A stretch of 34,124 nt of DNA from Stramenopiles sp. TOSAG23-6 (GCA_900128565.1 LT635952.1:1-34124); one strand, 5' to 3'. Numbered from the stretch's first letter, positions 1 through 20,324 are shown. Notes: generated by a model from the sequence alone, not told the origin. Translations and numbers: made by a program.

Positions 1-53
1 ATTTCGTACGAAAAAAAATCGATTTTTTTGTTTAAAAAAAAAATAAAACATAC
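1..53 (-). other. Truncated copy of the repeat-family intron (5' half); mirror 34072..34124
   Basis: T|GTATGTTTTATTTT...AAAAAAATCGATTTTTTTTCGTACGAAAT; the window ends inside the CGTACG palindromic core. Confidence 0.85.
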
Positions 54-821
54 ATTCGTTTGTTCTTTTGTATTCCTATGTCTACGATTTTGTTTTTTTT
101 CATTTTTTTCATCTTCCCATCGATTGAATAATTTGATACAACGAACATCATTTTCAGATAAATTATTTCCATTATATTTATCAACCATGGAATCATTTTG
201 ATGATGATGATGGCGATGATGATTTTTACGATTTTTATCAGTTTTATCCACTTTAGTAGATTTTCTTGGACTCGTAATAAAATGTTTAAACGAATTCCAC
301 AATCCAATTACTTGTTTCTCCTCCTTTATGAGGAATTGTTTTGCTTTGGACTCCAAAATATTTGCGTCTTTTGTTACTTCGTCTTCAATTGCTTGAACCT
401 CGTCTACAATTGCATGCTCTATTTTTTGAAGGGCAGACATAGAACCAATAGAATTGGGTGTTAATTGGTGCTGGTTATGTTGATGATGGTGTTTCGAATG
501 ATGATGATGTTGATGATGGTGTTCCGGTTGATCAACTGAATGTTTTCGATGATGATGATGATGATGAGATTTCTTTTCTTTTTCTTCTTGAAGGCTTTTG
601 GGCTTTTTCTTCTTTTTCTTGCTTCTTCTTGTGAATGACATTGTCTTTGTGGCTCGTTTCCAAATTGAAGGATTTCCCGTGGTCGCAAAACCTCGTATTG
701 TTCCGCCACCAGCGCTTACTTTTGTGTCAACCTGTGGGTATTTTTTCCCGTTGTAACTACGCGTCTCACTGACTGTTGTTGTTGTAGTATATTCTGTTGT
801 CTTTCCCTCTTCTTCTTGCAT
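54..821 (-). CDS. First exon (256 codons) of an unknown low-complexity, His/Lys-rich protein; continues beyond window
   Basis: Manual translation from ATG at 821: MQEEEGKTTEYTTTTTVSE...KSHHHHHHRKH...RHHHHQND...KEQTN, with no stop before a family-intron donor GTATGTTTT at 53. Absent from the ORF track, probably because it has no stop inside the window. Confidence 0.7.
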
Positions 822-905
822 TCTATCTCTGTTTTTTATTTCTTTTTTTATAATTGGGATATATCCTCAGTAAATCTCTCAATTGAAATATATTAGTCGG
901 ATGCT

Positions 906-957
906 GGTGTACTAATATTCTTAGTATATGCGGTGTACTAATATTCTTAGTATATGC
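906..957. repeat. Perfect 26-nt tandem duplication in divergent intergenic region
   Basis: GGTGTACTAATATTCTTAGTATATGC x2; each unit contains TACTAA/TTAGTA inverted arms. Confidence 0.9.
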
Positions 958-1329
958 GATAAGAAGATACGATAAAATGAGTACTGTATATTGTAACGTC
1001 TATCCAAAAACCTCCGGAAAGAACTGAAGAAAAGCGAAAGGATAACGGAAGAAACGACGGAGATATTTGTAATCTAATAACGACAAACCTGTTCCAAATT
1101 TAAATTTTCTCTTTTCTCCAACCTTTGAAACGCATTTCAATTTGTTCAAAATTTGAATTTCGAAAATCGAATAAGTGAAAATTTAATCAAGAGAATAAAA
1201 AATTTGAATGGAATCAAAAAATTCTCTTTCTATTAGGGAAAAATAATCATCAGGAATAGCAGCGTATTTTTACAATAAATTGGTGAATTATACTCTAGAA
1301 GCTTTACAAGTGTGCAAGTCTGAGTCTCA

Positions 1330-2695
1330 ATGAGCTCACTAGATTTCTTTGTCGTCATGATGTGTCTACGATTGACGATTCCATCTTCATCAAAACATAG
1401 CGTATTCAAAGACCTACATGCCCAATCTCTTGCATGCGCTAGTTATGAAACAGATAACATTGTATGGAATCAAATGATAATGGAAGCTGGTCCAACAGCT
1501 CTTGAATTGCCAATTAAGATAGCACACCCTTCAAACTCTAGTAACTCACAAAAATGGGACAAAGCCGGTATTTTGATAGAGCCACGCAGCCATCCTTGTA
1601 TAGGAATTGTTGTTCGCTCGGTGATGTTTTATCTTGGACCTAATTGGGGTTTACAAATATTCCACGGGCCAGATAATCTACAATTTATAAGAGATAATTT
1701 GTCCCTAAATTGTTCTGTGACTACTAATAGTTGCACTTATAACAAAGCTATACTCAAAAGGATTAAATTTACAAATTTATATAATGTATATAAAAGTATG
1801 CAATCAAATACTTGGCCTTTATGGCTTCAGAATAAATGGGCCTCTTGGGTATCGCTACAGGAAAAAGAGAATGAAAGCAGCGGGCATTGGAATCTTCATC
1901 GTAGGGTGTATGTTTTCATCATGAATTTCAAATTTTTGTTTCGTACGAAATTTTGTACCTAAGAAAAATTTAAATTTGATATATTTTTTCACAATACATA
2001 TATAGTCAAATTCTTCTTGATATGAAGTTTTGGGAGAAAGTTAGTGCTGATACAGTTTTAATATTCCAAACTGATTCCTTCCTTTGCCGTTTTGGAATTG
2101 AAAAATATAAAGATTTTGACTATGTAGTACGTTCTTCACTTTATTTCATATTTTTTTTGTTGTATACCCAGCTAACGAAATTAGAATTTAAAATATTTTT
2201 TTTTGTATATACCTAACGGATTTATAATTTAAAATATATTTTTTCAGATTTCATGGCTCTCCCTGGAAATTATGTTTCAACAACCCTAGCAGCTATCTCT
2301 GTGTTGGAGGAAACGGGGGTCTTTCTCTTCGAAAGACTTCAGCAATGAAGCATTTAATTACAAATGGAGTAAGAACACTAGAAATGGAAGACTGTATGTT
2401 TTATTTTTTTTCAAATTCTAATTTTTTTTTCGTACGAAATTTTGTACACCAATTTGCTGATTGGTTGCATAGGTCAAAAAAACAAAAATTTACTTTGTTA
2501 CCATTTGAAACTGCACAAAATGTTTTTGTTGAAGAAATTGTACCAAAAAATACTAATAAATTACCAATTCTGGGTATACATAAAGTCTTCAAATATATAA
2601 ATAGTAATAGTATGAGTATGTTACTCCAGTCATGTATGTCAGAACTTAGAAAACCTCAAAACTTTAAAAAGGATGGAGAATTATCAGAATTATAA
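1330..2695 (+). CDS. DUF5672-like (putative glycosyltransferase-fold) protein, 4 exons: 1330-1907, 2000-2126, 2255-2393, 2448-2695
   Basis: Joined exons give LIEPR..., W.LQIFHG.DN, YSQILL..KFW, VLIFQTDS, DFDYVGSPW, GGNGGLSLRK, MEDY, GIHK, motifs I recognise from DUF5672 proteins. Start codon uncertain. Confidence 0.7.
1908..1999 (+). other. Repeat-family non-canonical intron (GT...AT, 92 nt); mirror 32126..32217
   Basis: agg gt|GTATGTTTTC...TTTCGTACGAAATTTTGTACCTAAG...TTTTTCACAATACAT|a tat agt gives R-V-Y-S-Q. An in-frame TAG acceptor 6 nt downstream would delete YS. Confidence 0.75.
2127..2254 (+). other. Repeat-family non-canonical intron (GT...AT, 128 nt); mirror 31871..31998
   Basis: tat gta|GTACGTT...ATACCTAACG...TTTTCAGATTTCAT|ggc tct ccc tgg restores DYVGSPW. 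The nearby CAG (7 nt upstream) is out of frame. Confidence 0.8.
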
Positions 2696-2900
2696 ATGAA
2701 AATATTTAATATTTTTAATTAAGTTTACCATATGTTTGTGAATTTCAAATTTATTTAGCCGTGGTCAAATTTTTTTTTTGACTTTCGTCCCAGTCAGGAC
2801 TCCGGAGGTCAAAAAAAATATCAAACACGAACACGAGAGATAAAAAAGCAATGCAATTATTTCTTTTCAATAAAATGCAGTAGCTAATTTCACGACAATA

Positions 2901-4734
2901 ATGCCAGTCTTGAATAATGCTACCTCACCAATTGTTGGAAAGCAAAAGCGTTCTATTCTTTTTGTATGTGACTTTTTTTACCCTAGATTAGGTGGGGTAG
3001 AAATGCACGTCTTTAGTCTTGCTCAGTGCCTTTTAAAACGAGGACATAAAGTCGTGATTTTGACACATAATTACGAAAATCGTGTAGGTGTGCGTTACAT
3101 GGTCAACGGTCTCAAAGTGTATTATGCTCCCCTTGCAGTAATGGCAGATCAATGTACTTTCCCCACACTGTATGGATTTTTCCCTTTGTTTCGTCAGATT
3201 CTTATTCGGGAAAAAATAGACATTGTGCATGGTCACCAGGCAACATCTCAGTTAACTCATGAGTGCATACTTCATGCTCAAACTATGTCATACAAAGTTG
3301 TGTATACGGATCATTCGCTTTTTGGTTTTGCGGATCTCGCAAGCATTCACGCAAATAAAGTCCTTTCCTTTACTCTATGTAATATTGATCACGCAATATG
3401 TGTTTCACACACCTGTCGGGAAAATTTAGTATTACGGGCATCACTTGCGCCTGAAATAGTATCCGCAATTCCTAATGCTGTAGATTCATCAAAATTCACC
3501 CCTGATTTTGAAAAGCCACACTTTACGAAGTTTCCTACTGAATCAGATGTAATTAATGTTGTCGTAATTAGCAGAATGGCATTTAGGAAAGGTATTGATT
3601 TACTTGTGCAAATGATACCTCTTGTATGTCGTGATTGTCCTAATGTTCATTTTATTATTGGAGGCGATGGTCCGAAACGATTGCTTCTCGAGGAAATGAG
3701 AGAAAAAGAATGTTTGTTTTCATCATTCATTTCAAAAAAACAAATTCGTACCAAATTCCGTACCTAACGAAATTCGAATTTGAAATATTTTTCATCAAAA
3801 TATGTCTACAAGATAGAATAGAAATATTAGGCTCAGTGCCACACCGAAATGTTCGAGATGTTTTAGTGAGAGGTCATATATTTCTAAATTGTAGTCTGAC
3901 AGAATCTTTTTGTATCGCAATTCTTGAAGCTGCTTCTTGTACGTTTTCACCAATACGAATTTCAAATTCTGTTTTTTTTTCGTACTAAATTTTGTACCTA
4001 AGGGTTTTTTTGGGGTTTTATTGTAGTAATATACTTAACAAAAAAATCGAATCTATTGTATACATATTCTTTCACAATATATGTGGTCTTTATGTAGTTT
4101 CAACAAAAGTAGGAGGAGTACCAGAAGTCTTACCACCAGAAATGATCAGTTTTTCTTCACCAAACGCTGCCGATTTATCTCAAACATTGCAACGATCTTT
4201 CAAAAATCTTGCTTTCGTCGATGTACATTTTCAAAATTAAATTTTCAAAATTTCAAAATTTTTTTTTTGTAAGTAGAAACTTTCATACCTAACAAAATAT
4301 TTTTACTGAAAAAAATATTTTTTCACAACATATCGCGCTCATTTTCATGAATCTTTAACTACAATGTATAATTGGGAAAATGTTGCGGAACGTACTGAAA
4401 TTGTATATGATCGAGTGGTACCTTTTTTATTTCAAATTTCAATTTTTTTTTTTTTATACGAAATTTCGTACGTAACATTTTTTTTTTTTCGAAATATTTT
4501 TTCACAATACGTATAAATCTTCCGACTACATCGGTATTGAAAAGATTTCAAACATATAGTCAAATTGGAACTATTTTTGGTCCACTTTGTTGCATTATTA
4601 TTGTAATTGATTATCTATTTTTGAAAATTTTAGAGATTTTAATGCCAACAGAACTTGTTGAAATTGCACCAAATTTGACAATATCGATGTTAGGGTATAA
4701 ACAAAACATGGAAAGCAAAGAAAAGTATAAATAG
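2901..4734 (+). CDS. PIGA: Phosphatidylinositol N-acetylglucosaminyltransferase subunit A (GPI anchor biosynthesis), 5 exons: 2901-3711, 3804-3938, 4083-4222, 4334-4417, 4513-4734
   Basis: [115 protein letters not shown], and a C-terminal hydrophobic segment. Confidence 0.97.
3712..3803 (+). other. Repeat-family non-canonical intron (GT...AT, 92 nt); mirror 30284..30375
   Basis: gaa t|GTTTGTTTTC...TTCGTACCAAATTCCGTACCTAACG...TGAAATATTTTTCATCAAAATAT|gt cta caa gat gives EKECLQDRIE. No AG in the insert; a downstream in-frame AAG would delete 3 codons. Confidence 0.75.
3939..4082 (+). other. Repeat-family non-canonical intron (GT...AT, 144 nt); mirror 30005..30148
   Basis: tct t|GTACGTTTTC...TTTCGTACTAAATTTTGTACCTAAG...TTTCACAATATAT|gt ggt ctt restores [12 protein letters not shown]. 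Contains an in-frame TAA, and the internal AGs are out of frame. Confidence 0.85.
4223..4333 (+). other. Repeat-family non-canonical intron (GT...AT, 111 nt); mirror 29754..29864
   Basis: gtc gat|GTACATTTTC...CATACCTAAC...AAATATTTTTTCACAACATAT|cgc gct cat ttt cat. There is no AG between CCTAAC and the last codon of the conserved next exon, and the upstream AGs (4273, 4276) run into stops. Confidence 0.85.
4418..4512 (+). other. Repeat-family non-canonical intron (GT...GT, 95 nt); mirror 29575..29669
   Basis: cga gtg|GTACCTTTT...TACGAAATTTCGTACGTAAC...GAAATATTTTTTCACAATACGT|ata aat. No AG in the insert and the next two AGs are out of frame. Confidence 0.8.
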
Positions 4735-4863
4735 GACAATTTCTAATTTCAATTGTGAGCTTTTGGTAAGCTAAGGTGTTCTACATGCAATACTTAAATA
4801 TACTTAAATATAAATAATACAAATGAAGAATGTTTTTACTTGAAAATTATTTTTTTAAACATT

Positions 4864-7024
4864 TTACTGTTGGTATGCATTTATCACCATTTGTAGTAAT
4901 TCCGCTATTCTAGAGTCATTCCTTGCAATCTTTGCCTTTACTGTATTAATCTTTGTCATTTGATCTTTTATTGATTTTTCTTGCGCTTCCAATTCAGCAT
5001 ACAAACCTTTTATTTCATCTTCTTGTGATCGTTCAATGTCTTCGAATTCAGCCGTATATTTTTCATACTCACAACGCCATTGTATTAATTCTTTTTTCAT
5101 CATTTCCATATCTTCATGAACAAAATCCATGTACTGTTAAAAAATATATATTTTTTAAATTTGTTAGGTACAAAATTGAGTACGAAAAAAAAAACATAAA
5201 TTCAAAATTGAAAAACAAAACATACATGCACTTACCTAAAGGATTAGTACTTTTGCACAATTTCTGTATACCTATACGTAATTCTTTGACATTCACTGTG
5301 GTTTTTTTTCTACCTGATTTTTGTTTTTTTCCGACTCTTCCCATACGAATTCCTTTTTTCTGTGATGTTTTCTTTGATTCAGAATTTTCTGCACGTTTAG
5401 CTTCATCTGCCCTATTGGTTTCAGCGGCCTCAATTTCTCTTACAAGCTTAGATTTATTACCACCGTAATCATCAGCTTGGGAATCTAAACGAAAGTCATC
5501 ATTTTTAGACTCTTTTTGTTCATCATCAGAATCATCCTCTGAATCTTTGGCATCTTCAGTAATCACATTACCCACTTCAGCATCTGGATCAATATTTTTG
5601 AGATCAGATACTTTGCGCACATTCTCTCTTACTGTAGGAGGTCTCCTACGGGCAGTTGTAGGTCTTGCAAGACGTTGTGTCCTTGGTCTTTCAGATGGTG
5701 CTTCGAATTCTGTAGCACTACTCTTCTTTTTCGATTTCGAAGGTCGCCTTGGCTTGGAAGGCACATCTTGTTTTGTATCCATATCTACATCAGATATTCG
5801 CGAATTTTGTGATTCCTTTTCTTCCCGTGTTGATGAATGTGCCATTGCCGACAATGATGAATCTGTATTTTGAATACGAGAAGTACTCGAGTTAGTGTTT
5901 GACGAAATATCAGTACTACCAGTAGCAGCTACAACTAAATATTCTAGAAAACGTCGAGTTTTTTCAGTCTCTTTACCCGCGACTACTTTTGATAAATTAA
6001 TATCACAAATTACACCTAAATCTGCATTCACTGCATCTACGATTTTTTGTAAATATCCTATTTTCATTTCTTTCCCTTTAATAGCCTTTGAATTTTTCTC
6101 ATCGTCACCATAAAGTTCTGTTTGATAATTTCGCGCATTGCATATATTAGTAATCACATCAAATAAGAAACGAAATGGAGGTTTTCCGAGTAATTTATCA
6201 CTTAATCTTGGTTTTGATATGATTGCGGATATTCTTTCCCTACATTCTTCAAGATCCCCAGTCAAAACACTTAGGTCCAATTGTTCATCACTGTGTTTTG
6301 AACTTTGATGTTTTGGTGTAGAGTCTGCTTCAGAAAATTTTGACATTTCGGGAGATTGGGGGCGACGTGACTCAATTTGATGTTTCCCTTCATCTTTACT
6401 TTCTCGTTCACGGGAACCTGTTTCTACAGTATTCTTAAGATCAAAATCTGATTGCTCTTGTGATGGTGGAGCATCCTCTGGCTCTTGTATACGTTCACGA
6501 CNTTTTTTAGGCTTTTTTGGTTCAGATTCTAGTGTCGATTTACTTTCTTCTAGAGATATTTTTCCTTCTGTTGATCCTTTCTTACTAGAAGACTGTTTCA
6601 TTATGCGCCCGCCGCCACTCCCAGGAGTTTCCCCATTCAGTACCCGTTCGACTAATGGATCGTTATCTGAGGCAGATTCTTTGGCACAAATGGCGAGTTG
6701 CTGAAGGAATCCGTTTGTTCTCTCAGGTTCTTTGCCTGCAACAACTTTATTTGGATTCACATCTACTGGTGTGCCTTGGGCAAGACCTACTAAAGCTATT
6801 ATTTTGTTAAGATACGCAATTTTTGGACCTTTCCCTCGAATTGCTTTACCATTTAACTCTTCACCTTCATATAAACCTTCACCGAACCCCGTTTCCTTAT
6901 TTACATTCGAAATGATATCGTGTAGGAACCTAAATGGGGGTTTTCCAAGTAGTTTATCCGACATTTTTGGCTTGAAAATGAGCCCATCAAAGTGTTGCCT
7001 TGTTTCGTTGATGATATCTTCCAT
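4864..7024 (-). CDS. IFT54: Intraflagellar transport protein 54 / TRAF3-interacting protein 1 (MIP-T3), 2 exons: 7024-5226, 5128-4864
   Basis: KPKMSDKLLGKPPFRFLHDII, KVVAGKEPERTN.FLQ, RPTTARRRPP, IQKLCKSTNPLGKCMDFVHEDME.MKKEL, and a C-terminal coiled coil. Confidence 0.93.
5129..5225 (-). other. Repeat-family non-canonical intron (GT...AT, 97 nt); mirror 28862..28958
   Basis: tgc at|GTATGTTTT...TTTCGTACTCAATTTTGTACCTAAC...TTTTAACAGTACAT|g gat ttt restores PLGKCMDFV. The CAG 5 nt upstream of the end is out of frame. Confidence 0.85.
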
Positions 7025-7190
7025 GGTGTAATGTATCGGAAATGAAGTACGTAATTTGTGGGTAAAAGAAAAACACACAAGTTTTGTCGTATCTCAAAAC
7101 ACAGAAGGGATAAACGTTAAAAAAAACGATTTGTAAAAGTAACCGTCGACAAAAAAAAAAAAAAGAAAAATACACGAAATATCAAAGCAT

Positions 7191-9891
7191 TTATAAAAAT
7201 TTTACTTTTGCACTACCGGCGGCGTGCTTGTTTGCAGCTGTACTACTGCCATAACACCAAACATTAGATTGTTTAGCAATTCTTGTACCAAATTGAATAG
7301 CTCGTTTTGGTAGGCTAGCAGCTGTATCTAATCCTAAAATTCGAGCAACATCTCGAATAATCAATTTATCGCCCATGCCACGTGGCAATGAAAAATCTAC
7401 AATAATATCCAATGGAAGAGATCGAAGTAAACAAGTCACATTTTCATCTAAAAAAGGAAATCTTGCCTCTCTGCCATGAACAGAAAGTATGCGATCATCT
7501 CTTCCGAAATTTCTTTGCCACATGTATTGTGAAAAATATTTCAAAAAAAATCGTTAGGTACAAAATGTCGTATGAAAAAAAAATTGAAATTCAGGATGAA
7601 AACGTACATTCGACACTGATCAAGATTTAATTCTCTCGCCAATCCCATTCTGCCATTTTGTGTATATGCAAATTTGTGCCTTCCGTACCCACCTGCGTAT
7701 TCATCAGCACCAGTACCAGTAAGTAAAACACGCGCACAACTTTGATACGAAACGTCATTTTTTGTTTCAATATTTTGTTTTTTTGATGTGTCAATTTTCA
7801 TATTTTCAACATTTTTTGTTTCAAGTTTTTGTTTTTTTGATGTGTCAATTTTCATATTTTTATTATTTGGATTTGTTGTCTTTTTCTTATTTTTTCTTTT
7901 TTTCATCTTTTTTACAAGTTGTTTTGCATGACTTCGACAGAAAATGACTTCGTTTTTAAGAATACCACTGTTTATACCTTGATCTGCTGCATTTGAGTAT
8001 GCAGAAATATCAATATCCAAGTGTTCTAAATTTGTTTTTGCAGAAAATTCCAAAAACTTAGTATTGTGTTTTTCATTGTTATTATTTGTTTTCATTTCTG
8101 AAAGAAATACTTGACGAAGTAAAGTATGTGTACGATGACAACACGAAATGCAACATAAGAACTCACAATCAGCATGTGGATTTTTTTTGCAATTCTTCCC
8201 TTTGATAAAACGACCATGGCATTGAGCTGAATATTGTTTCGATGTCATTGTATTTTTTGTATGACTATTTTCTTTATCATTAGAATGATCATCACTCAGT
8301 CCTGTAGCATTAGATATTTGATTGCATTGTCTCATTTTGTTTCTCCTATTTATTCTGTTTTGTCTACTTTTCTCATCAACTAGAACTAACTCACGTATTT
8401 TTGTTTCTGTATGAATATTATTTACATCATTTATAGCATCCAAGTATTTTGGAAAAATATTTCAAAAAACAATTCGTTAGGTACAAAATTTCGTACGCAA
8501 AATAAATTCGATTTTTTTGTTAAAAAAAAAAATAAAACATACAAGTGACGGTTTAATTCAGATATATTTGTAATTATTCCTCCAGTTGCTAAACCTTTTG
8601 ATGCAAACCATAAAGCAGCACCAATATTAAAATCCATATTTGACGTTTTAGGATGAATAAGTTGTTCTATAGTTTTCGATTCTTTTCGGACATTTTCAAA
8701 AGTTTCATTGCATAAGAGAAGTCTAAGTGTTGTTGTTGTTCTTGTTGTATTGTTTTGGTTTTTATCTTTGATATGTTTTTGATGCCATAGTCCAAGTAAT
8801 TTGCTAAATCCGAATAGTGCACTTTTTCGATCAGGGGAAAGAAACATTGATTCCGAGTCAAAACAAACATTAATTAAATCTAAGGGTTCATTGCTTGGCA
8901 TTAGATCTATGCATAATGCAGCTATAATCATTGAATCTAAGCCACCGGAAAATAAAATCCCGATACGTGCAGGTGAAAAATGAGAATCTGATTCAGAAGA
9001 AGAACGACAATCTATAGGAAATTTATGTGAAGCTAAATTAGAAATTCGTTTTGCCACTGAAGATTTCAAGGCCTCTAATAGTAAATCTGCTGCAGTTGTA
9101 CGTGGGAGTAGTCTATTACGAATTGGCAGTTGGCTAAAAGTAAGGTTTTGTGTCCACTTGTGAAGTTTTACCTCAAGAGGAACAATTAAACAACCTTGAT
9201 CATTTAGTGAGAGATGAACACTAAAAATTCCAAGTGGTGGAATTTCTAACCATTTTCTTGTTGTCGTTGGTGAATTAACAATATCTGTTGGACTAACAGA
9301 TGCTATGAATAAGTCGTTCATCATACCAGCCCGAAAAACAGTAGAGTCAACATCATTATCAGTTGAGAGAACATCATTATCAGTTGAATTTAAGGATTTT
9401 GTTGATTGCTCTTGAAATATACCAGGAGATGCCATTAGACTACGCCGACCTCTAGGATCGCGACCAAAATATAAAGTTCCTGCAGGGTTTGAATTAGTAC
9501 CAACAATATGTTTTTCAGGCTTCCAATAAACAAACGACCAAGGGCCGTATATACTTCCCATTATTGCGACTATTTCCTCTGGTGTGTTGCTGGCACTGAG
9601 CTGCTCTAAGACGCATATGGTATCGTTTTTGTTCGGCCCAACATGTAAGCCACCAAATACTTCCCCATTCCAGAGGAGAGCATTGCCTCTATTATCTACT
9701 AGTGGTTGTTTAGTAGGACCAGTGGAACCCCTGAGATGTAAAACACAAGCAGCTAACTGTAAAGCTCCACCGAGTTCATTGCACCTGCCAGTAGAGTCTG
9801 GACCACGGGGTTCTATCACACGTAATGACTTTGTTATTGAAGCAGTGACTGTTTCAGGATTTTCTGAAATAGCTGCAGCAATGCCACACAT
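7191..9891 (-). CDS. ASNSD1: Asparagine synthetase domain-containing protein 1-like (Ntn glutamine amidotransferase plus synthetase domain), 3 exons: 9891-8543, 8441-7608, 7521-7191
   Basis: MCGI start, [111 protein letters not shown]. Confidence 0.93.
7522..7607 (-). other. Repeat-family non-canonical intron (GT...AT, 86 nt); mirror 26480..26565
   Basis: cga at|GTACGTTTTC...CATACGACATTTTGTACCTAACG...TGAAATATTTTTCACAATACAT|g tgg caa aga gives [12 protein letters not shown]. No AG in the insert. Confidence 0.85.
7756..7860 (-). repeat. 54-nt in-frame tandem duplication within ASNSD1 insert
   Basis: [18 protein letters not shown] / [17 protein letters not shown]. Confidence 0.9.
8442..8542 (-). 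other. Repeat-family non-canonical intron (GT...TT, 101 nt); mirror 25545..25645
   Basis: cac tt|GTATGTTTT...AAAAAAATCGAATTT...CGTACGAAATTTTGTACCTAACG...TGAAATATTTTTCCAAAATACTT|g gat gct joins the two long ORFs in frame. No AG in the insert. Confidence 0.8.
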
Positions 9892-10182
9892 AATAAAAAA
9901 TAATTCCCTTCTCTGGAACAAGTCGAACCAAATTGAGATTATCTTGTACAGTACTACGAGAATCTAGGAAGTAATTAAAAATTGATCTGACTCGACTGTT
10001 TTTTTTTTTTTCTCAAAAATCTAATTGAAGCAGGTTTGCGCTTTTTTTTTCGTGGTTTTCGTGTTATCATTTCAGCACAAAGACGAGCTTGAAAAAATGC
10101 TCTTCTTGCGTGTCGCTTTTTCCCTTGTGGTGCGGTTTGTCTTGCTGTTGTTTATCCAGGCCCAAACAAACATTTAAAGAAG

Positions 10183-10680
10183 ATGCCACATACCAAAGGT
10201 TACCGCGCAGCTACGCGTGACTTGTTCTGTAACAAGTTCCGCCAGGATGGTTTGATCAACATGACCACGTATAACACCGTATACAAGGTTGGAGATTACG
10301 TTGACATTAAGTGTAACGCTAAGGTCCAAAAAGGTATGCCACACAAGTTCTACCACGGCCGTACTGGTGTCATCTACAATGTCACCAAGGCTGCTGTTGG
10401 TGTTGTTGTCAACAAGAACGTTAATGGTCGCATCCTTAAGAAGCGCGTCAACCTCCGTGTTGAACACGTTCACCACTCTAAGTGCCGGGATGAACTTATC
10501 AGCCGTGTTAAGTCTAATGAACTCATCAAGAACACTCGCAAAGCTAAAGGAGTATCTCCAAAGGATGCTCCAGTATGCTTGAAACGTACACCTGTACTCC
10601 CACAAGCTGGTAAAATCATCAAGATGAAAGGAAAGAAGGCTAAAATCCTTTATCCTGTTCGTTACGAATTTGTCGTCTAA
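10183..10680 (+). CDS. RPL21: 60S ribosomal protein L21 (eL21)
   Basis: GYR..TRDLF, YKVGDYVDIK.N..VQKGMPHKFYHGRTG, VNK.V.GRI..KR.N.RVEHV.HSKCR. Confidence 0.98.
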   Translation: MPHTKGYRAATRDLFCNKFRQDGLINMTTYNTVYKVGDYVDIKCNAKVQKGMPHKFYHGRTGVIYNVTKAAVGVVVNKNVNGRILKKRVNLRVEHVHHSKCRDELISRVKSNELIKNTRKAKGVSPKDAPVCLKRTPVLPQAGKIIKMKGKKAKILYPVRYEFVV

Positions 10681-11182
10681 ATGTTGTTATCGTGAGATGA
10701 CTCTAGTCTTCTCTAAGTGTTTGCGACGTTTACCAACGTCGTTGGAGATTTTTTGTCTTTTTACTTAATGAATACATGCGTAGACACTAAATGAATACAC
10801 GTAAAGTGTTTAATTTGGTGATAATCTGCACTGCGAAATACCGAAAAGTCAAATAAAAATACACACCTGGAAAAAAGTTTTTTTTATTGCGTATATTTTT
10901 GTTAATTTTTCATCTTTTGATAGTCGTCGTGACTCTTTCACTTTTATGCATACTTTCCGAAATATCAACTTGTGACGTAAGATAATGTTTTATCGTGTGT
11001 TGTTGTAATGTTTCGTTTCCTTTAGTAGTATAGATTAATTGTATCAAATTTGGGATTTTGGGATTTTTTTTATGCAAAAAATATTTCAACTTCCTAAATT
11101 TTTTTGTGCTACATTTTCAATAACTACAACACATACATATAAATATAGTAGTTGTTTATTGTATAAAGCAATTAATATAATG

Positions 11183-11791
11183 TTAGTGTCGTGTTTGCGA
11201 ATAATGGATAAAATCGGAGCCTCTCAATAATGCAATATTGCTATTATTATACCGCTGAGTTTCACGTTTTATACCGTGGATGTCTTTCATCCCTATCCAC
11301 TGTAATAATAACCGAATTTCATCATCATCCATTGGCTTATCAACAATTTCAGCTGCTTCTTTAACTTCCTGACTATCAACATATCCAGTACCTTCTGGAT
11401 CAAATGAAAACTTAAATGCTGCAAACATATTCGTTTCCGTAGCGTTTTTTGTCGAAAAAGACTTGGCTGAATCCAGCAGCTCTTCAAAATCAACTTCTCT
11501 ATTTCCAATTTTTCTTAATTCTTCATTCAACTCCTGCTGCGATGGCACTAGCCCTGCACTTCTTACTATCATTGGGAAGAACTTCGCGTGGACTTTTGAT
11601 GTTTGTGCTGTATCAAATAAACAAAAAGCGTCTCTCAATTTCGTAACTTGGACTGACGTTAAGTCTCTCTGTTCACAAATGAAAGCTTTCCCTTTGTTTG
11701 GTCGATTTTTCCAATGTCGAGCTAATTGTTTAGCATATTTGGTCTGTAAGCGATTCCTTTTATTTTGCTTTAAAACTAATGCAGTACTCAT
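11183..11791 (-). CDS. Calmodulin/centrin-like EF-hand protein with degenerate loops
   Basis: LTSVQV.KLRDAF.LFD, VRSAGLVPSQQEL, VDFEELL, AF..FDPEGTGYV, MDDDEI follow the calmodulin-family pattern. Confidence 0.8.
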   Translation of the reverse strand: MSTALVLKQNKRNRLQTKYAKQLARHWKNRPNKGKAFICEQRDLTSVQVTKLRDAFCLFDTAQTSKVHAKFFPMIVRSAGLVPSQQELNEELRKIGNREVDFEELLDSAKSFSTKNATETNMFAAFKFSFDPEGTGYVDSQEVKEAAEIVDKPMDDDEIRLLLQWIGMKDIHGIKRETQRYNNSNIALLRGSDFIHYSQTRH

Positions 11792-12094
11792 ATTCTTTCA
11801 ATTTGGAAGAAGAAGTTCGAGATGTCTGACGTATCTAGTTTTGGATACTACTGAACACTCCTTTAGTAGTCTGTATAGAAGAAGTCGAAGTAACGAAGTT
11901 CTTTTTTTGTACCAAAAATTTGTACTTAACGGGGATACGTTAACTTCGAGGATCTTACACTGTATATGGATCTATATACAATATATGATATCATTTCACA
12001 ATTTTCCAACTCAAATGTCAAGCATTCACCATAAAATGCCAGGTATTCGAACAATATAGTATACAGCGGTTAGAAAAAAAGCACAACGAATAGT

Positions 12095-12748
12095 ATGTCG
12101 AGAGAAACGACTTGTTTTGTTCTTGACTGTTCGTGTCCCGCTCGAACAGAATACATTCAAATAGGTGCAAATTCTTCGGTTGATATTCAAATAGGTACAA
12201 ATTCTTCGGTTGACATTGAGGATGAATCCTTCACAATGAAACAGGGATACAGAAGAGTAGTTGAAGAAACGCATAAACCAGTAATTCGGCTATGTACTAA
12301 ACACATTATAGACTCTGTTACAAAAAGGATTGCCTGTCAAGATCCATTAGAAATATTTTCCTGTGATAGATCTGAGGAAAAAGAACCCGATGTAGATGCC
12401 GTAGTTGATTTAGAAATAGCAAATTACAGACCTTCCTGGCAACCAGATGAAAGTGCATCTTTATGTACCAATTGTAGCACGGAATTCACAGTGTCTAATA
12501 GACGTCATCATTGTAGAGTATGTGGTAGCATATTTTGTGGAGATTGTTCTCCTTTTGAATTAGGCCGTCAGAATGCACGTTGTTGCATTTTATGTCATAC
12601 TGGTATTAAAGAAGAAATTAGGCGCTTACATAAACATTCAGAAAGTGAAAAAACAAATGAAGTTATACCATGGTATTGTATAAACCAAAAATATCTGTTA
12701 GATAACCCAAATGCCTCTTTTTTTACACAACTCACTGATTGCTTATAG
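12095..12748 (+). CDS. FYVE zinc-finger protein
   Basis: WQPDE...[27 protein letters not shown]...RCC..C (WxxD and RRHHCR signature). Confidence 0.9.
12155..12217 (+). repeat. 30-nt in-frame tandem duplication in FYVE gene
   Basis: [10 protein letters not shown] / [10 protein letters not shown]. Confidence 0.9.
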
Positions 12749-13091
12749 AGTTCTGAACTTCGATTAGCTTTTTCACCCCATAAAAACTTTTATACCTGCA
12801 CTTTTGGAATGAATGGTAAATAAATGAAATTTGAATAATATATATCATTTTGTTTGCATATCGTCATAATATGATTATGAAGAACTCACCTGTCCTTCTC
12901 GAACGTTCACAAAAGCACAAAATTGTCACGAAATCGGGGCCCAGTACCGGGTAACATACTAGTCACATTTTTTTCTTTTCTGCTGACTACAAAGAGGTTG
13001 CTTCTGTTGTGTGCTTTCGTCCTTTCGCCCTTTGGTTCCCTTTTCTGCGTCCGCGTGTTTTCTTTTCTACCGTATCTACCAGCTTCAAAAA

Positions 13092-13329
13092 GTAAGTTAC
13101 ATTAATACCATTAAATTAAATGTATAGAATGTGTCCAGCTTATCTATGATGGCGTTTATTTTCCCGGTGTTTCTCAAATACAGTACCTGCGCGTACCATT
13201 GATACAAAAACCTGTTTTTTATCACTCGCAATTGGCAATATTTTCATGTGTACATTTATATTCTATCCCACACTAGAACCACCAGTGACTAACTAAAATA
13301 ACCTTGTTTTCATAATTATTATATAACAG
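13092..13329 (+). other. Probable canonical GT-AG intron in RPL28 5' UTR; mirror 20758..20995
   Basis: GTAAGT donor at 13092, GACTAAC branch site at 13287-13293, TAACAG acceptor ending 1 nt before the ATG, and a pyrimidine-rich leader upstream. Confidence 0.7.
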
Positions 13330-13330
13330 A

Positions 13331-13762
13331 ATGTCGAACTCTATCGTCTGGAACATTGTCAAAGCCAACTCTTGCTTTCTTAAGAAGCAGAAACATGCTC
13401 AATTCACAAGTGAACCAAGAAACCTTACTGCTATGAACTGCAAGAAGTATTCTGGACTCGCAAATGAAAAAACTGTTGGAATTGATTTCAACGCTGAACT
13501 CTTAGCTGAATCAAAAGCTATGCGTAAGGCACAGATTACCAAATCTGCTCCAAAGAATCTCGCTCGCCCTAACAAAGCAGTTTCAACTTACAAGTTGGCT
13601 CGTGGGTTTCGTGGAAACGTCAAAGCTCTCCGCAACCACACTCGCCGCTTCCGCCCAGACCTTGAAAAGGCTGCTCTTGCTCGTTGGACTAAGATGAACA
13701 CTTCTCTCCGCGTATGCAGAAACAGAAAACGTAGTCGCACTGGCTACAAAGCTACCAAGTAA
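13331..13762 (+). CDS. RPL28: 60S ribosomal protein L28 (eL28)
   Basis: IVWNIVK.NSCFL.K, F.SEP.NL...N..KYSGLAN.KTVGI, FRPDL.KAALAR. Confidence 0.96.
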   Translation: MSNSIVWNIVKANSCFLKKQKHAQFTSEPRNLTAMNCKKYSGLANEKTVGIDFNAELLAESKAMRKAQITKSAPKNLARPNKAVSTYKLARGFRGNVKALRNHTRRFRPDLEKAALARWTKMNTSLRVCRNRKRSRTGYKATK

Positions 13763-13956
13763 GTAATTCATTTTGACTTATATAATTTGGTTAGTGGGAA
13801 GATGATAACGGGGGAAATATTTGGAGATTTGTTTCACTTATTTTAATCACATTCTAATGTAAACTGTTGGTAACGGCATATGTTTTATGATTATTTTATT
13901 CTTTGTTTTTCTTTTTTTAGCCTAGAATATAGGCTTAGACTACTCTATTTTATTTT

Positions 13957-14457
13957 TTACCCTGGTGGCCATGATAGCTGACGTCCTCCAATTAAATGTA
14001 GATGCAAATGGTATACTGATTGACAACCCATAACTCCATCATTTACTACAATACGAAAACCATCTTTATCTAATCCCTCTTGTTTAGCAACTTCAGCTGC
14101 TGAAACCATAAGTCGTCCTAAAATATTCACATGATCATCAGTCGCTTTAGACAATTGAGTCAAACCTTGTCGAAGCTTTGGTATAAGAAGAATATGAGTC
14201 GGTGCAACTGGAGCTATATCCCGAAATGCAAGAACCTCCTCGGTTTCGTAGACTATTTCAGCAGGTATTTCTTTTGAAATTATTTTATCAAATATGGTAA
14301 AATCAGAATAAGGAACTGCTTTAGCTGCTTTTAGTTGTTCACCAGATGGACACTGAGAATTCATTTGTCTAATAGGAAACTTCTGGATAGCCGATGTGTT
14401 AAGTATTCTTTGAGGAAATACACCAGATATTACACAAAGATTTCGTAATATTCGCAT
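13957..14457 (-). CDS. HINT: Histidine triad nucleotide-binding protein (HINT family), with possible mitochondrial presequence
   Basis: TIFDKIISKEIPA.IVYE, LAFRDIAPVAPTHIL.IPK, GFRIVVNDG..GCQSVYHLHLHLIGGRQLSWPPG; the N-terminal extension is basic and lacks acidic residues. Confidence 0.96.
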   Translation of the reverse strand: MRILRNLCVISGVFPQRILNTSAIQKFPIRQMNSQCPSGEQLKAAKAVPYSDFTIFDKIISKEIPAEIVYETEEVLAFRDIAPVAPTHILLIPKLRQGLTQLSKATDDHVNILGRLMVSAAEVAKQEGLDKDGFRIVVNDGVMGCQSVYHLHLHLIGGRQLSWPPG

Positions 14458-14580
14458 GTAGTGTATCTGAAAAATAAAACTGGAATGAAGAGCAGGAAGA
14501 ATTCTATCTGGTTGTAGTCACTAAAGTGATGTTGTAACATTGTTGTTTTTCGATTTGATACCTCGACATATAGCTAGCCT

Positions 14581-14622
14581 ACTAGGGTTAGGGTTATAAT
14601 TGCTACCACTAGGGTTAGGGTT
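14581..14622. promoter_or_regulatory. Two telo-box-like ACTAGGGTTAGGGTT motifs between divergent HINT and MO25 genes
   Basis: 15-mer at 14581-14595 and 14608-14622; regulatory role inferred from position only. Confidence 0.45.
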
Positions 14623-14865
14623 TTGACTCGTGTGACTATCATTATTTACTTTTTAGTCTGGAAATCCAGCTGAAACCAAGCTTCTTTTTGTTTTTTCTAT
14701 AGACAAATATACTATATTCTCTTAAAAGGAGTGATATATATACTAAATAGATTAGTGTTTTCCTTGTATTCTCTCTCTCTGCTTTAGATTTCCCGGTCTT
14801 GAAGTACGTAATTTATCGATTGTTAAAGTTTTCTTTGTTCATTGTTTAATTGTTCCAGTGAAAAC

Positions 14866-15420
14866 ATGGCGTTTTTGAAAAATATGTTTGGTGGAGGTGT
14901 TGACCCAAAGCGACTGTGTAAAAAGATTGATGACGATCTTACAATCATCAATGCAAATGTTATGGATTCTACACCTGATTCTGAAGAGTTTCCCGCTGAA
15001 GTGAAAGAAGCTATGACTCATCTCGACAAACAATTGAAGAAGATGCGCGACGTTTTTTTCGGAACCCCTCCACAGAGCTCTGTGGACACGGCCGTTTGCG
15101 AAAAAATTGGCGATGAGGTCGTTCAACGCGATTTATTTAAACGTCTTATTATAGCCTTTCCAAACCTTGATTTTGAGACACGTAAATTAGTTGAAATGAA
15201 CTTTATTGCGCTTCACCACAATGACTATGGGCGATTTGGAAGTGTTTATTTGACGAATATGAAAAATCGGCCTCTATTAGACCGTCTTGTCCGAGGATAT
15301 GAAGGTAGTGGTGATATTGCATTAATATGTGGTCGCATGCTACGTGAATGTCTTTCTAATAAGGAATTGGCAAAAACACTCATCACACGTCAAACATTTG
15401 ACCTGTTTATGAAAGAATAT
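14866..15420 (+). CDS. CAB39: MO25/CAB39-family protein, N-terminal exon only (C-terminal half absent)
   Basis: MRDVFFG, LDFETRK, L.RGYE..DIALICGRMLRECL...LAK.LI...F..F..Y match MO25; ends at a family-intron donor. Confidence 0.85.
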
Positions 15421-15533
15421 GTATGTTTTATTATTTTTTTTTACCGAAAAAAAAAATCGATTTTTTTTTCGTACGAAATTTTGTACCTAACAAATTTTTT
15501 AAGAAAATTTTGAAATATTTTTCCAAAATACAT
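15421..15533 (+). other. Repeat-family element joining MO25 5' part to SF3B2 3' part (probably chimeric); mirror 18554..18666
   Basis: Full consensus GTATGTTTT...TTTCGTACGAAATTTTGTACCTAAC...TGAAATATTTTTCCAAAATACAT; flanking exons belong to different genes and different phases. Confidence 0.85.
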
Positions 15534-16361
15534 TGACTGAAAAGGCGGGGGAAAAAACGATCAGGCAAAAGGCGAGGGACCGAATGCAAGTTAAGATGAA
15601 CAAAATTAGTATCGATTATCAAGTTTTGTATAATGCGTTTTTTAAATTCCAAAAAAAACCAAAATTATTAGGGCATAATAATTGTTATTATGAGGGGAAA
15701 GAATTTGAGGTATTGGGTACAACACGAAAACCCGGAAATCTTAGCCCGGCTCTAAAATTAGCTCTTGGGATGCCAGCAAACGGAACGTCTCCACCTCCAT
15801 GGCTGATCAATATGCAACGATATGGTCCACCACCTGCGTATACTAAGCTGAAGATACCAGGTTTAAATTCACCGATTCCACCAGGGGCTTGTACATTATC
15901 TTCATTCAAATCTTTGATCACATTGTACCCCTAACCCTAATTTTTTTCAAAAAAAATTACAAAAATATGTTTTGTTTTTGTCTCTTTGGCTCACATATTT
16001 TTTAATTTTTTTTTTCACAATACATCTTTTGGATACCATACAGGAGGATGGGGGAAGCCTCCTGTAGATATCAATGGTAAAGCTTTATATGGTAATGTTT
16101 TTGGACGCTCTGGCTTCGATGATGATGAAAAAAATATTTCAAAATCTCGTTGGGGCGAAATTTTAGACGATGATGACGATGATGATGAGGAAGAGGATAA
16201 TGTCGAAGAAGCATTTGCGACCCAGATTCCTTCAACTGGTACCGACACAAGTGATGGAATTTCGTCTGTTATGACGGGTATTGAAACGCCAATGTCAGGA
16301 TTTGATGGAACTGTATTTTATGTTTATTACAAAAATTTGTACCAAAAATTTGTACCTAACG

Positions 16362-16399
<38 letters not shown>

Positions 16400-16934
16400 T
16401 CTAACAAAATTAATTCTAACAAAATTGTAGACTACGAAAAAATATTTCTTCACAATACATACATCTGTCAATTTGCAAAAGAAAATTATGTCTGAAACTC
16501 CAACACCTCAATTATATAAAGTTCTCGCTCAGAACCAAAGAAATGTGTATGTTTTACATTTCATTTTTTTTTTTTTTCATACGAAATTTTGTACCTAACA
16601 AAAAATTAAATTTTTTTTTTTGAATTTTTTTAAATTTTTAAAATTTTCTTTGATGTACACAGTACTATTTTTTTTTTTATATATAAAAGTATAAAAATAT
16701 AAAAGTATAACCCTACACCCTAACTTTACTCTAATCTTTACAAACAAAAACAAATTAAAAAATATTTTTTTACCATACATCAGCGATACAGATGCATTTG
16801 GTTCATCTTACAATTATGTTTTACCAGGTGCACAACAAAACACTGGTGTTGAACATGATGGTTTTGCAAGTTTAGCAAAAAAAGGTGTTCAAGGTCAAAA
16901 CAAACCAGTGAAAGAAATATCTTTAGGTGGAACA
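15534..16934 (+). CDS. SF3B2: Splicing factor 3B subunit 2 (SAP145/Cus1), partial: exons 15534-15890, 16026-16312, 16461-16546, 16781-16934
   Basis: IDYQVL..AFFKFQ.KP, YYEGKEFE, KPG.LS..LK.ALGM, PPPWLINMQRYGPPP.Y..LKIPGLNSPIPPGASFGYH.GGWGKPPVD..GK.LYG.VFG, WGE, G.ETP, PQLY.VL. N-terminus and extreme C-terminus are missing. Confidence 0.95.
15891..16025 (+). other. Repeat-family non-canonical intron (GT...AT, 135 nt); mirror 18062..18196
   Basis: gct t|GTACATT...TTGTACCCCTAAC...TTTTCACAATACAT|ct ttt gga restores PPGASFGYH. No AG in the insert, and using either of the next two AGs creates TGA. Confidence 0.88.
16313..16460 (+). other. Repeat-family intron (GT...AT, 148 nt; alternative in-frame AG at 16430); mirror 17627..17774
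   Basis: gga act|GTATTTT...TTTGTACCAAAAATTTGTACCTAACG-polyA...AAATATTTCTTCACAATACAT|aca tct gtc aat ttg. Confidence 0.7.
16547..16780 (+). other. Repeat-family intron (GT...AT, 234 nt; alternative in-frame CAG 3 nt downstream); mirror 17307..17540
   Basis: aat gt|GTATGTTTT...CATACGAAATTTTGTACCTAAC...AAATATTTTTTTACCATACAT|c agc gat aca gat gca ttt ggt. Confidence 0.7.
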
Positions 16935-17014
16935 GTGCGTTTTCAGTATCATTTTTTTAAATTTTTGACAATTGTATAAGAAAATTTCATACCTAACATT
17001 TTTTTTTTTTACCG

Positions 17015-17043
<29 letters not shown>
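16935..17043 (+). other. Truncated repeat-family intron cut by the palindrome axis
   Basis: aca|GTGCGTTTTC...AAATTTCATACCTAAC-T run-ACCG-polyA, then the sequence folds back. Confidence 0.75.
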
Positions 17044-17072
<29 letters not shown>

Positions 17073-17152
17073 CGGTAAAAAAAAAAAATGTTAGGTATGA
17101 AATTTTCTTATACAATTGTCAAAAATTTAAAAAAATGATACTGAAAACGCAC

Positions 17153-17687
17153 TGTTCCACCTAAAGATATTTCTTTCACTGGTTTGTTTTGACCTTGAAC
17201 ACCTTTTTTTGCTAAACTTGCAAAACCATCATGTTCAACACCAGTGTTTTGTTGTGCACCTGGTAAAACATAATTGTAAGATGAACCAAATGCATCTGTA
17301 TCGCTGATGTATGGTAAAAAAATATTTTTTAATTTGTTTTTGTTTGTAAAGATTAGAGTAAAGTTAGGGTGTAGGGTTATACTTTTATATTTTTATACTT
17401 TTATATATAAAAAAAAAAATAGTACTGTGTACATCAAAGAAAATTTTAAAAATTTAAAAAAATTCAAAAAAAAAAATTTAATTTTTTGTTAGGTACAAAA
17501 TTTCGTATGAAAAAAAAAAAAAATGAAATGTAAAACATACACATTTCTTTGGTTCTGAGCGAGAACTTTATATAATTGAGGTGTTGGAGTTTCAGACATA
17601 ATTTTCTTTTGCAAATTGACAGATGTATGTATTGTGAAGAAATATTTTTTCGTAGTCTACAATTTTGTTAGAATTAATTTTGTTAGA

Positions 17688-17725
<38 letters not shown>

Positions 17726-18553
17726 CGTTAGGTACAAATTTTTGGTACAAATTTTTGTAATAAACATAAAATACAGTTCCATCAAATCCTGACATTGGCG
17801 TTTCAATACCCGTCATAACAGACGAAATTCCATCACTTGTGTCGGTACCAGTTGAAGGAATCTGGGTCGCAAATGCTTCTTCGACATTATCCTCTTCCTC
17901 ATCATCATCGTCATCATCGTCTAAAATTTCGCCCCAACGAGATTTTGAAATATTTTTTTCATCATCATCGAAGCCAGAGCGTCCAAAAACATTACCATAT
18001 AAAGCTTTACCATTGATATCTACAGGAGGCTTCCCCCATCCTCCTGTATGGTATCCAAAAGATGTATTGTGAAAAAAAAAATTAAAAAATATGTGAGCCA
18101 AAGAGACAAAAACAAAACATATTTTTGTAATTTTTTTTGAAAAAAATTAGGGTTAGGGGTACAATGTGATCAAAGATTTGAATGAAGATAATGTACAAGC
18201 CCCTGGTGGAATCGGTGAATTTAAACCTGGTATCTTCAGCTTAGTATACGCAGGTGGTGGACCATATCGTTGCATATTGATCAGCCATGGAGGTGGAGAC
18301 GTTCCGTTTGCTGGCATCCCAAGAGCTAATTTTAGAGCCGGGCTAAGATTTCCGGGTTTTCGTGTTGTACCCAATACCTCAAATTCTTTCCCCTCATAAT
18401 AACAATTATTATGCCCTAATAATTTTGGTTTTTTTTGGAATTTAAAAAACGCATTATACAAAACTTGATAATCGATACTAATTTTGTTCATCTTAACTTG
18501 CATTCGGTCCCTCGCCTTTTGCCTGATCGTTTTTTCCCCCGCCTTTTCAGTCA
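17153..18553 (-). CDS. SF3B2: SF3B2 partial, mirror copy
   Basis: Reverse complement of 15534..16934. Confidence 0.9.
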
Positions 18554-18666
18554 ATGTATTTTGGAAAAATATTTCAAAATTTTCTTAAAAAATTTGTTAG
18601 GTACAAAATTTCGTACGAAAAAAAAATCGATTTTTTTTTTCGGTAAAAAAAAATAATAAAACATAC

Positions 18667-20130: not shown

Positions 20131-20324
20131 AAAATAAAATAGAGTAGTCTAAGCCTATATTCTAGGCTAAAAAAAGAAAAACAAAGAATAAAATAATCAT
20201 AAAACATATGCCGTTACCAACAGTTTACATTAGAATGTGATTAAAATAAGTGAAACAAATCTCCAAATATTTCCCCCGTTATCATCTTCCCACTAACCAA
20301 ATTATATAAGTCAAAATGAATTAC

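Follow-up and report, generated by a model that had tools for sequence, protein, structure and literature searches.

The question raised by this locus is how one repeated element may come to serve as the introns of several unrelated genes, and be removed from their transcripts with an end other than AG. The locus, a stretch of 34,124 nt (hereafter the window) from Stramenopiles sp. TOSAG23-6 (GCA_900128565.1 LT635952.1:1-34124), carries in one arm (1-17062) 17 related short introns, spread over 8 genes. With a rough probability of 0.5, these are members of one lineage-specific and very abundant introner-like family of a probable MAST-3 (marine stramenopile) host, which spread at the DNA level, is removed by the spliceosome, and has its 3' cut set by a conserved box.

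The window folds back on itself: 17063-34124 and 1-17024 are exact reverse complements, the arms being 100% identical over 14577 and 2447 nt, and the centre (17025-17062) is an A28/T28 run located inside an intron copy. The arms differ only by 38 nt of one intron (i04), absent at 2447/2448 in the first. The foldback is probably a chimera of single-cell amplification or assembly, rather than a true chromosome palindrome. The analysis was confined to one arm (1-17062; an earlier sequence-only reading of this DNA covered 1-17043).

A family of homologous introns

All copies follow the same order of motifs: GTAYGTTTT, a T/A tract, TTTCGTACGAAA, TTTTGTACCTAAC, a spacer, and GAAATATTTTTYCACAATAC plus 2 nt. 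Allowing up to 2 mismatches, TTTGTACCTAAC occurs 37 times in the window versus 4.1+/-2.1 times in shuffled sequences, and TTTCGTACGAAA 28 versus 3.4+/-1.9 times; because the window is a foldback, each arm carries half of these counts. The alignment of 13 copies yielded a 96-nt consensus, made of GTATGTTTT, a variable T/A stretch often featuring AATTTCAAA, a T run, TCGTACNAAATTTTGTACCTAAC, a spacer and TTTGAAATATTTTTTCACAATACAT. Pairwise identity among the nine short copies averages 64% (range 51-83%), versus 31+/-3% (maximum 37.5%) in 30 dinucleotide shuffles aligned likewise.

Subfamilies cross gene borders. An A7-10 TCGA T-run is common to i01, i11 and i13, and the 3' half of i06 encloses a 24-nt piece of it; i12, in the 5' untranslated region (UTR) of the FYVE gene, and i15, in SF3B2, have a doubled GTACC box in common. 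Since such derived insertions and duplications are shared by copies residing in unrelated genes, the copies must be homologous beyond a mere likeness of signals and, as judged by these comparisons, homologous over their whole length, forming one family. Many homologous introns across unrelated genes of one genome are what is found in introners.

The ordered architecture and the single family proposed in the sequence-only reading agree with these counts, identities and subfamilies. The three copies of 92 nt and the 86-113 nt which it gave for most copies fit the length list below, and the sense orientation it gave for all copies is found in 17/17. Its 16 copies become 17 in the arm, the family being real. 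It had also suggested an HMM (hidden Markov model) search of the genome; run on the window, a model built from nine copies detected no additional independent copy on either strand, antisense and intergenic ones included. Its palindromic core stands in part: in the arm, just 4 copies match the 12-nt palindrome TTTCGTACGAAA perfectly, and a further 4 differ from it by one mismatch. Together, TTTCGTACGAAA and TTTTGTACCTAAC read better as a branch box duplicated in tandem (12-13 nt), the core looking palindromic because GTAC is its own complement.

Twelve of the 17 copies are complete and in frame. Of the other five, i01 and i17 are cut, i12 is placed in a 5'UTR, i13 results from a mis-join, and only the second arm keeps i04 entire. 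Copy lengths are 92 nt (three copies), 86, 95, 97, 101, 111, 113, 122, 135, 144, 148 and 234 nt. The copies are listed hereafter (ORF, open reading frame).

i01: 1-53, minus strand; 5' part (GTATGTTTT..A7TCGAT8..TTTCGTACGAAAT), cut by the window start, on the 3' side of the His-rich ORF 54-866(-); nhmmer match 53-2, HMM positions 1-50.
i02: 1908-1999, plus strand; 92 nt, GTATGT...CAATACAT, phase 2, DUF5672 gene; nhmmer 55 bits.
i03: 2127-2248, plus strand; diverged, 122 nt, GTACGT...TTTCAGA, branch-to-3' part tandemly duplicated (TRF, 43-nt x2.3 at 2148-2244).
i04: 2394-2447, plus strand; copy of the first arm (arm a) lacking the last 38 nt; the whole 92-nt copy is at 31640-31731(-), GTATGT...AAATACCT.
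i05: 3712-3803, plus strand; 92 nt, GTTTGT...CAAAATAT, phase 1, PIG-A; gap-free versus P0122, P0125 and P0126.
i06: 3939-4082, plus strand; 144 nt, GTACGT...CAATATAT, PIG-A; A7TCGA-subfamily fragment in the 3' half.
i07: 4223-4333, plus strand; 111 nt, GTACAT...CAACATAT, phase 0, PIG-A.
i08: 4418-4512, plus strand; 95 nt, GTACCT...CAATACGT, phase 0, PIG-A; sole copy without a border repeat.
i09: 5129-5225, minus strand; 97 nt, GTATGT...CAGTACAT, MIP-T3/IFT54-like gene; out-of-frame CAG 5 nt upstream of the end.
i10: 7522-7607, minus strand; 86 nt, GTACGT...CAATACAT, long ORF 7191-9900(-).
i11: 8442-8542, minus strand; 101 nt, GTATGT...AAATACTT, same gene as i10; A7TCGA subfamily, 4-nt border repeat ACTT.
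i12: 11873-12006, plus strand; diverged, with duplicated GTACC box, upstream of the FYVE ATG (12095), presumed 5'UTR intron with approximate ends; nhmmer match 11887-11931, plus strand.
i13: 15421-15533, plus strand; 113 nt, full family layout, A10TCGAT9 subfamily; joins half of Mo25 to mid-SF3B2.
i14: 15891-16025, plus strand; 135 nt, GTACAT...CAATACAT, SF3B2; interior diverged, with CCCTAA units; junction ...PGA/SFGYH...
i15: 16313-16460, plus strand; 148 nt, GTATTT...CAATACAT, SF3B2; duplicated GTACC box, A33 run, 15-nt x2.4 repeat.
i16: 16547-16780, plus strand; 234 nt, GTATGT...CCATACAT, SF3B2; long A/T-rich insert.
i17: 16935-17062, plus strand; 5' part (GTGCGTTTT...TTTCATACCTAAC), cut by the foldback centre.
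Mirror arm: 17063-34124; same copies as reverse complements, position p becoming 34087-p for p>2447 and 34125-p for p<=2447.

The 38 nt missing from i04 in arm a correspond to the region from the branch box to the 3' end (31640-31677 in the second arm, arm b), and the truncated copy stays in frame. The in-frame end of i03 is located 1 nt beyond a CAG, and the exon downstream matches DUF5672. Copy i13 is regarded as a mis-join of two copies because it connects Mo25 (profile positions 10-169 of 332) to mid-SF3B2, and its frame breaks the family rule.

Intron boundaries and reading frames

When copies are anchored on TGTAYG and ATAC, 11 of 14 require the identical offset modulo 3. Copy i05 fits the common offset after gapless alignment of its 3' box, and the remaining exceptions are i03 (which ends in TTTCAGA) and the chimera i13. 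Removal of GT...ATAC+NT opens reading frames of 463 aa in PIG-A, 365 aa in DUF5672, 688 aa in MIP-T3, 840 aa in the long ORF and 296 aa in SF3B2, for a total of 13 junctions in five restored genes. The spliced PIG-A aligns gap-free over four junctions with P0122, P0125 and P0126, homologues from other organisms, and one junction splits the conserved Cys codon of ...AASCGL.... The spliced SF3B2 reads ...PGASFGYHTGGWG... / ...IPPGASFGYHTGGWGKPPVD..., like P0244 (...PEGASFGYHPGGWG...). The restored frames and the gap-free alignments imply that the intron 3' end is not AG, in line with what the sequence-only reading had claimed.

Other units were considered. GT...ATAC taken as the exact unit is out of frame; a TA...AC unit, shifted by one codon, introduces stop codons in i06 and i14; canonical GT-AG alternatives either delete conserved residues or break the frame; the CAG of i09, 5 nt before the inferred end, is out of frame if used as acceptor. 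With frames and homologue alignments in agreement and these alternatives failing, the length of the excised unit is firm. Because T is found at both flanks (11 copies; A at both in i03), the unit may be written either as GT...NT after a T, or as TGT...N before a T. The former is preferred because GUAUGU is a standard donor. Under the GT reading the last three bases are CAT in 6 and TAT in 3 junctions (YAT in 9/13), while CCT, CTT, CGT and AGA are found once each, i13 being excluded. AG is the acceptor in 0/13 junctions; i03 may alternatively be read as AG...CAG. Phases 0, 1 and 2 are represented 4, 4 and 5 times.

Splice signals and mode of removal

Except for the acceptor, the introns look conventional. 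The donor GT is invariant (14/14 copies), the branch box TACCTAAC is exact in 7/14 copies and has one mismatch in i02, i06 and i08, the branch A is located 32-44 nt upstream of the intron end in 12/14, and a T-rich tail devoid of AG is found in 10/14. The donor, the UACCUAAC box, the branch distance, the AG-poor T-rich tail and the sense orientation together indicate the major spliceosome, and these signals point to removal at the RNA level. Of the features of canonical U2-type introns, GT donor, branch site and pyrimidine tract are all present, and only the AG acceptor is missing at the in-frame end. U12-type introns have an RTATCCTT donor, and a TCCTTAAC branch 10-15 nt upstream of the 3' end; the family has GTAYGTTTT, and a branch box 32-44 nt from the end. 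The cut lies at a constant position relative to the CACAATAC box while the terminal dinucleotide varies, which suggests that the 3' cut is placed by position or by the conserved box.

In the mechanism proposed, the major spliceosome would remove the element from the transcript, using the yeast-like GUAUGU donor and the UACCUAAC branch box. The 3' cut would be fixed 2 nt beyond the CACAAUAC box, in most copies 32-44 nt past the branch A, with no need for AG, and the terminal dinucleotide would hence be free to vary (AT, CT, TT, GT).

Ends other than AG, overlapped by short direct repeats, are also what a removal independent of the spliceosome might leave, either by excision of RNA with paired ends, as in euglenids, or by elimination of DNA, as for the internal eliminated sequences (IESs) of ciliates; GUAU and AUAC ends may in addition pair in 89% of cells. 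This is quite improbable. The GUAUGU donor is conserved, and the UACCUAAC branch box is kept at a steady distance from the 3' end. RNA structure amounts to a GUAC hairpin of 4-6 bp, next to the branch box, and a GUAU/AUAC helix of 4 bp; although conserved, neither shows covariation, 80 of 500 shuffles pair equally well, and fold z-scores range from +0.07 to -2.3. No Rfam match was found across 1-17100. A conserved GTAYGT and an end helix of 4 bp do not correspond to the euglenid type; moreover, RPL21 is not euglenozoan-like and the PIG-A neighbours are stramenopiles. Ciliate IESs are cut from somatic DNA, may lie in either orientation, and in many ciliates are bounded by TA. The copies described here are all sense, their flanks are not TA, and the elements are present in the amplified DNA as well as in every seawater DNA contig reaching them.

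Border repeats and spread

The upstream exon ends in T in 14/17 copies, the exceptions being i03 (A), i08 (G) and i17 (A). Repeats between exon end and intron end measure at least 1 nt in 12/13 copies and at least 2 nt in 6/13, ranging from 0 to 4 nt, with the maximum in i11. In a control with re-paired flanks, repeats of at least 2 nt are found in 3.3/13 (P=0.034), and the mean repeat length differs with P=0.001 (permutation). The non-consensus repeats CT/CT (i04) and TT/TT (i11) contribute most of the weight. Being copy-specific, the border repeats favour insertion at the DNA level, by short duplication or microhomology, over reverse splicing. In the proposed mechanism the element would have spread by such insertion, leaving a short direct repeat whose copy on the intron side would have become the last 1-2 bases of the intron.

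Much of what the sequence-only reading had said of the borders is maintained. The trend towards an exon-final T, given as 13/16, is confirmed; the two-base duplications in 6/13 copies, CT/CT and TT/TT included, are found again; the re-pairing control supports the claim that the intron-side repeat forms the last intron bases; and no transposase is found among the ORFs examined. Its target-site duplication, if meant as one of fixed length, finds no clear support in repeats of 0-4 nt that reach 2 nt in only 6/13 copies. The GTAT...ATAC inverted ends which it described are present, but measure just 4-5 nt, and the intron extends 2 nt past ATAC, as its own wording on the target-site duplication implied.

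The classification of the family as a miniature inverted-repeat transposable element (MITE), a type of non-autonomous DNA transposon, is not supported. The terminal inverted repeats of MITEs reach about 10 nt at least, and their copies are expected in both orientations and outside genes, with an autonomous partner sharing their ends. Those of the family go no further than GTAT/ATAC, or TGTAT/ATACA with the flanking T included, too short for the element to be called a MITE, and covariation is missing. Neither antisense nor intergenic copies are found among the 17 copies in the window, and a scan of 10 ORFs revealed no transposase domain.

The shortness of the inverted ends, unlike those of typical DNA transposons, would suit a spread through RNA, in which excised introns are reverse-spliced into other transcripts, copied to DNA and recombined into the genome, with no involvement of transposases or target duplications. 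The exclusive sense orientation of the 17 copies, with none antisense or intergenic, the coincidence of the repeated unit with the excised unit, and the lack of a transposase in the ORFs examined are in keeping with this route. We consider it unlikely, as reverse splicing does not predict border repeats in excess of the re-paired control (P=0.034 and 0.001), and sense copies alone would equally remain if a compact genome had been purged of antisense ones. No reverse transcriptase was seen within 17 kb.

It may also be asked whether the copies have moved at all. Inherited, immobile introns could have converged to one pattern, or been held to it, by a machinery that needs long fixed signals. The conserved blocks are indeed the donor, the doubled branch box and the 3' box, separated by spacers made of A/T runs; mean identity is just 64%; and no intron in the arm departs from the pattern, which is what a general splicing code would demand. 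This explanation is doubtful, because features unrelated to splicing recur across unrelated genes (A7TCGAT7 in i01, i11, i13 and nested in i06; GTACC in i12 and i15), border repeats are specific to each copy, and phases are even (4/4/5).

Abundance in seawater and public sequences

Seawater runs, of both DNA and RNA, include parts of the stretch. One of the DNA runs, from 2024, supplied 6487 contig pieces that were placed on the arm at a likeness of at least 93%. Summed word depth, which is not equal to copy number, was 31,071 and 29,032 at two intron-core places versus 5.3-8.5 for unique pieces of the arm. Two RNA runs yielded 1040 and 1021 pieces, with a core depth of 2362 and 3273 versus 2-7 on exon pieces. 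The core thus ranks as a very common repeat, and does so in samples that owe nothing to the amplified DNA. Seawater DNA contigs end at introns (6156-7550, 7831-8448, 14582-15425), as assemblies do at repeats.

These data bear on whether whole-genome amplification or assembly could have produced the repeats artificially. Three facts would suit such an origin: the perfect foldback of the window, the truncation of one copy in a single arm, and the joining of two unrelated genes by another. An artefact is nevertheless hardly credible, given the very high depth reached in independent seawater DNA and RNA runs, and the exactness with which removal of the copies restores five conserved genes.

Searches of other collections added no relative. 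The exact core 22-mer had 0 matches in viral_contigs and 0 in metagenome_contigs. A gapped motif hit 35 loci, all by chance, none of which carried other family motifs. No protein of near length was more than 69% identical to the SF3B2 exon, and, as regards spliced products, searches with the SF3B2 exon at longer length and with the PIG-A exon retrieved only mis-spliced EukProt models of the same DNA.

Points against the proposed reading

Several observations weigh against a mobile family removed by the spliceosome. The length of the direct repeats varies from 0 to 4 nt, in a sample of 13 copies, and the inverted termini measure 4-5 nt and do not covary. In the window there are neither antisense, intergenic or autonomous copies nor empty sites. 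Copies are 51-83% alike, and the best-kept blocks are the presumed splice signals, which fits constraint with no recent movement. When contigs from three RNA runs and one DNA run were placed on the arm, no exon-exon RNA junction was found among the joints listed (15 of 272), all 15 linking one intron copy to another. Some RNA-run contigs cross from an intron into an exon (4039-4223, 5200-5457) and represent unspliced RNA or DNA; contig ends near the exon borders (1904, 4223) are uninformative for splicing. To our knowledge, there is no citable precedent for a spliceosome using a variable non-AG 3' end beside a fully canonical donor.

A more specific version of the proposed reading is held more tentatively, at somewhat less than even odds. 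The MAST-3 lineage would host thousands of introns derived from a single element, and its spliceosome would cut the 3' end at a fixed step past CACAAUAC, about 35 nt after the branch and with no recognition of AG, the last bases being those duplicated from the target.

Comparison with known introns

The introner-like elements of fungi (van der Burgt et al. 2012) reportedly have canonical GT-AG ends and a predicted stable structure. They are likewise reported as families of homologous spliceosomal introns lacking clear transposon hallmarks, in a different host group.

The introners of Micromonas pusilla and Aureococcus anophagefferens (Huff, Zilberman and Roy 2016) have canonical GT/GC-AG ends, inverted repeats and duplications of constant length (PMC11282704, PMC7789003). 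As in the family described here, a short non-autonomous repeat makes up many introns of unrelated genes in marine picoplankton, one of the two hosts being a stramenopile, and the element carries one splice site while the duplicated target helps to form the other end. They differ from the present copies, whose acceptor is other than AG, whose inverted ends measure 4-5 nt, and whose border repeats vary from 0 to 4 nt.

Amoebophrya elements have inverted repeats of 8-20 nt that form an end-joining hairpin, direct repeats of 3-5 nt and no fixed terminal dinucleotides, and belong to many families (PMC7789003). Repeated introns which are not GT-AG, direct repeats overlapping the borders, a marine protist as host and no transposase at hand are common to both systems; in the introns of the window the oddity is confined to the acceptor, GTAYGT donor and branch box being fixed, and any hairpin is weak.

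In the animal Fritillaria borealis (Henriet et al. 2019) introns are mostly AG-AC or AG-AT, and an adapted U2 spliceosome has been proposed (PMC11282704). These also are many, MITE-like, species-specific and with non-canonical ends, but in Fritillaria it is the donor that is non-canonical, whereas the present introns are GT...(A)T, with a canonical donor.

Neither a U1-type donor nor a pyrimidine tract is present in the nonconventional introns of euglenids and diplonemids, which need stable pairing of their ends (PMC12621601, PMC11282704). Non-AG ends, short direct repeats at the borders and a suspected MITE origin are shared features; in the family under study GUAUGU, the branch box and the T-rich tail are conserved, and end pairing is minimal.

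A canonical donor and branch box, with the acceptor alone deviating, set the family apart from all the kinds compared. No description of it was found in the literature searched, supplements and subscription papers lying outside that search. In the available main text of the MAST single-cell papers the word 'intron' occurs twice, in methods only (PMC5778133), or never (PMC8163842), and neither 'MAST' nor 'stramenopile' occurs in the available main text of a 2025 introner survey (PMC12130899).

Host and gene content

The PIG-A exon is best matched by P0121 ('GSMAST32.ASY1.ANO1.2757.1', EukProt), residue-identical wherever it overlaps the window, and the nearest named neighbours after it are brown algae and oomycetes. 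RPL21 matches fungal, animal and plant chains far better than kinetoplastid or alveolate ribosomal chains. A diplonemid origin was rejected, RPL21 and the PIG-A neighbours pointing elsewhere. Judging from the name prefix of P0121, a MAST-3 stramenopile is the most likely host.

The arm is AT-rich (26-39% G+C) and compact, with genes on both strands: the His-rich ORF 54-866(-), DUF5672, PIG-A, MIP-T3/IFT54-like, RPL21e, EF-hand, FYVE, HIT, half of Mo25 and part of SF3B2. The long ORF 7191-9900(-), presumably ASNSD1-like, has no Pfam match, and ORF 13331-13762 is one which we take to be RPL28e. At 14866-15533 the N-terminal half of Mo25 is fused through a family copy to SF3B2, two loci being seemingly merged at the repeat, which thus confounds assembly. 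Telomere-like TTAGGG/CCCTAA units are found twice in the HIT/Mo25 spacer (14590-14625), and inside i14 (15927-15940) and i16 (16718-16735). Coding DNA includes in-frame tandem duplications of 54 nt x1.9 and 30 nt x2.2 (7756-7860 and 12153-12217), and a 26-nt x2.2 repeat is located in a spacer (901-958). There is one N per arm (6502, 27585), within the MIP-T3-like ORF.

Public gene models and implications

P0241 ('...2762.1') is the best match of the SF3B2 exon. Both public models, P0121 (window 2901-4736) and P0241 (15533-16500), use false GT-AG sites or read through introns, losing conserved residues and gaining junk tails. In an AG-ending alternative featured in a public model, EYRIEILG replaces a 21-letter stretch, and SFGYHTGGWGKPPVDINGKA is lost. 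Protein sets, completeness scores and pseudogene inferences for these abundant uncultured ocean grazers may be distorted in the same way. 'Advanced pseudogenization' of dynein heavy chain genes and low gene counts are described for MAST-3 assemblies in the available text of PMC5778133; speculatively, unrecognised non-AG introns could mimic such decay of dynein genes.

Bursts of intron gain are at present best explained by introners, and those with non-canonical ends show how far the spliceosome bends. In the family described here, a textbook donor and branch site with an odd acceptor isolate the rule for the 3' splice site as the part that has changed. If the proposed reading is true, a new acceptor rule would operate beside a fully canonical donor and branch site, and the published gene sets and gene-loss claims for these uncultured protists would need to be redone.

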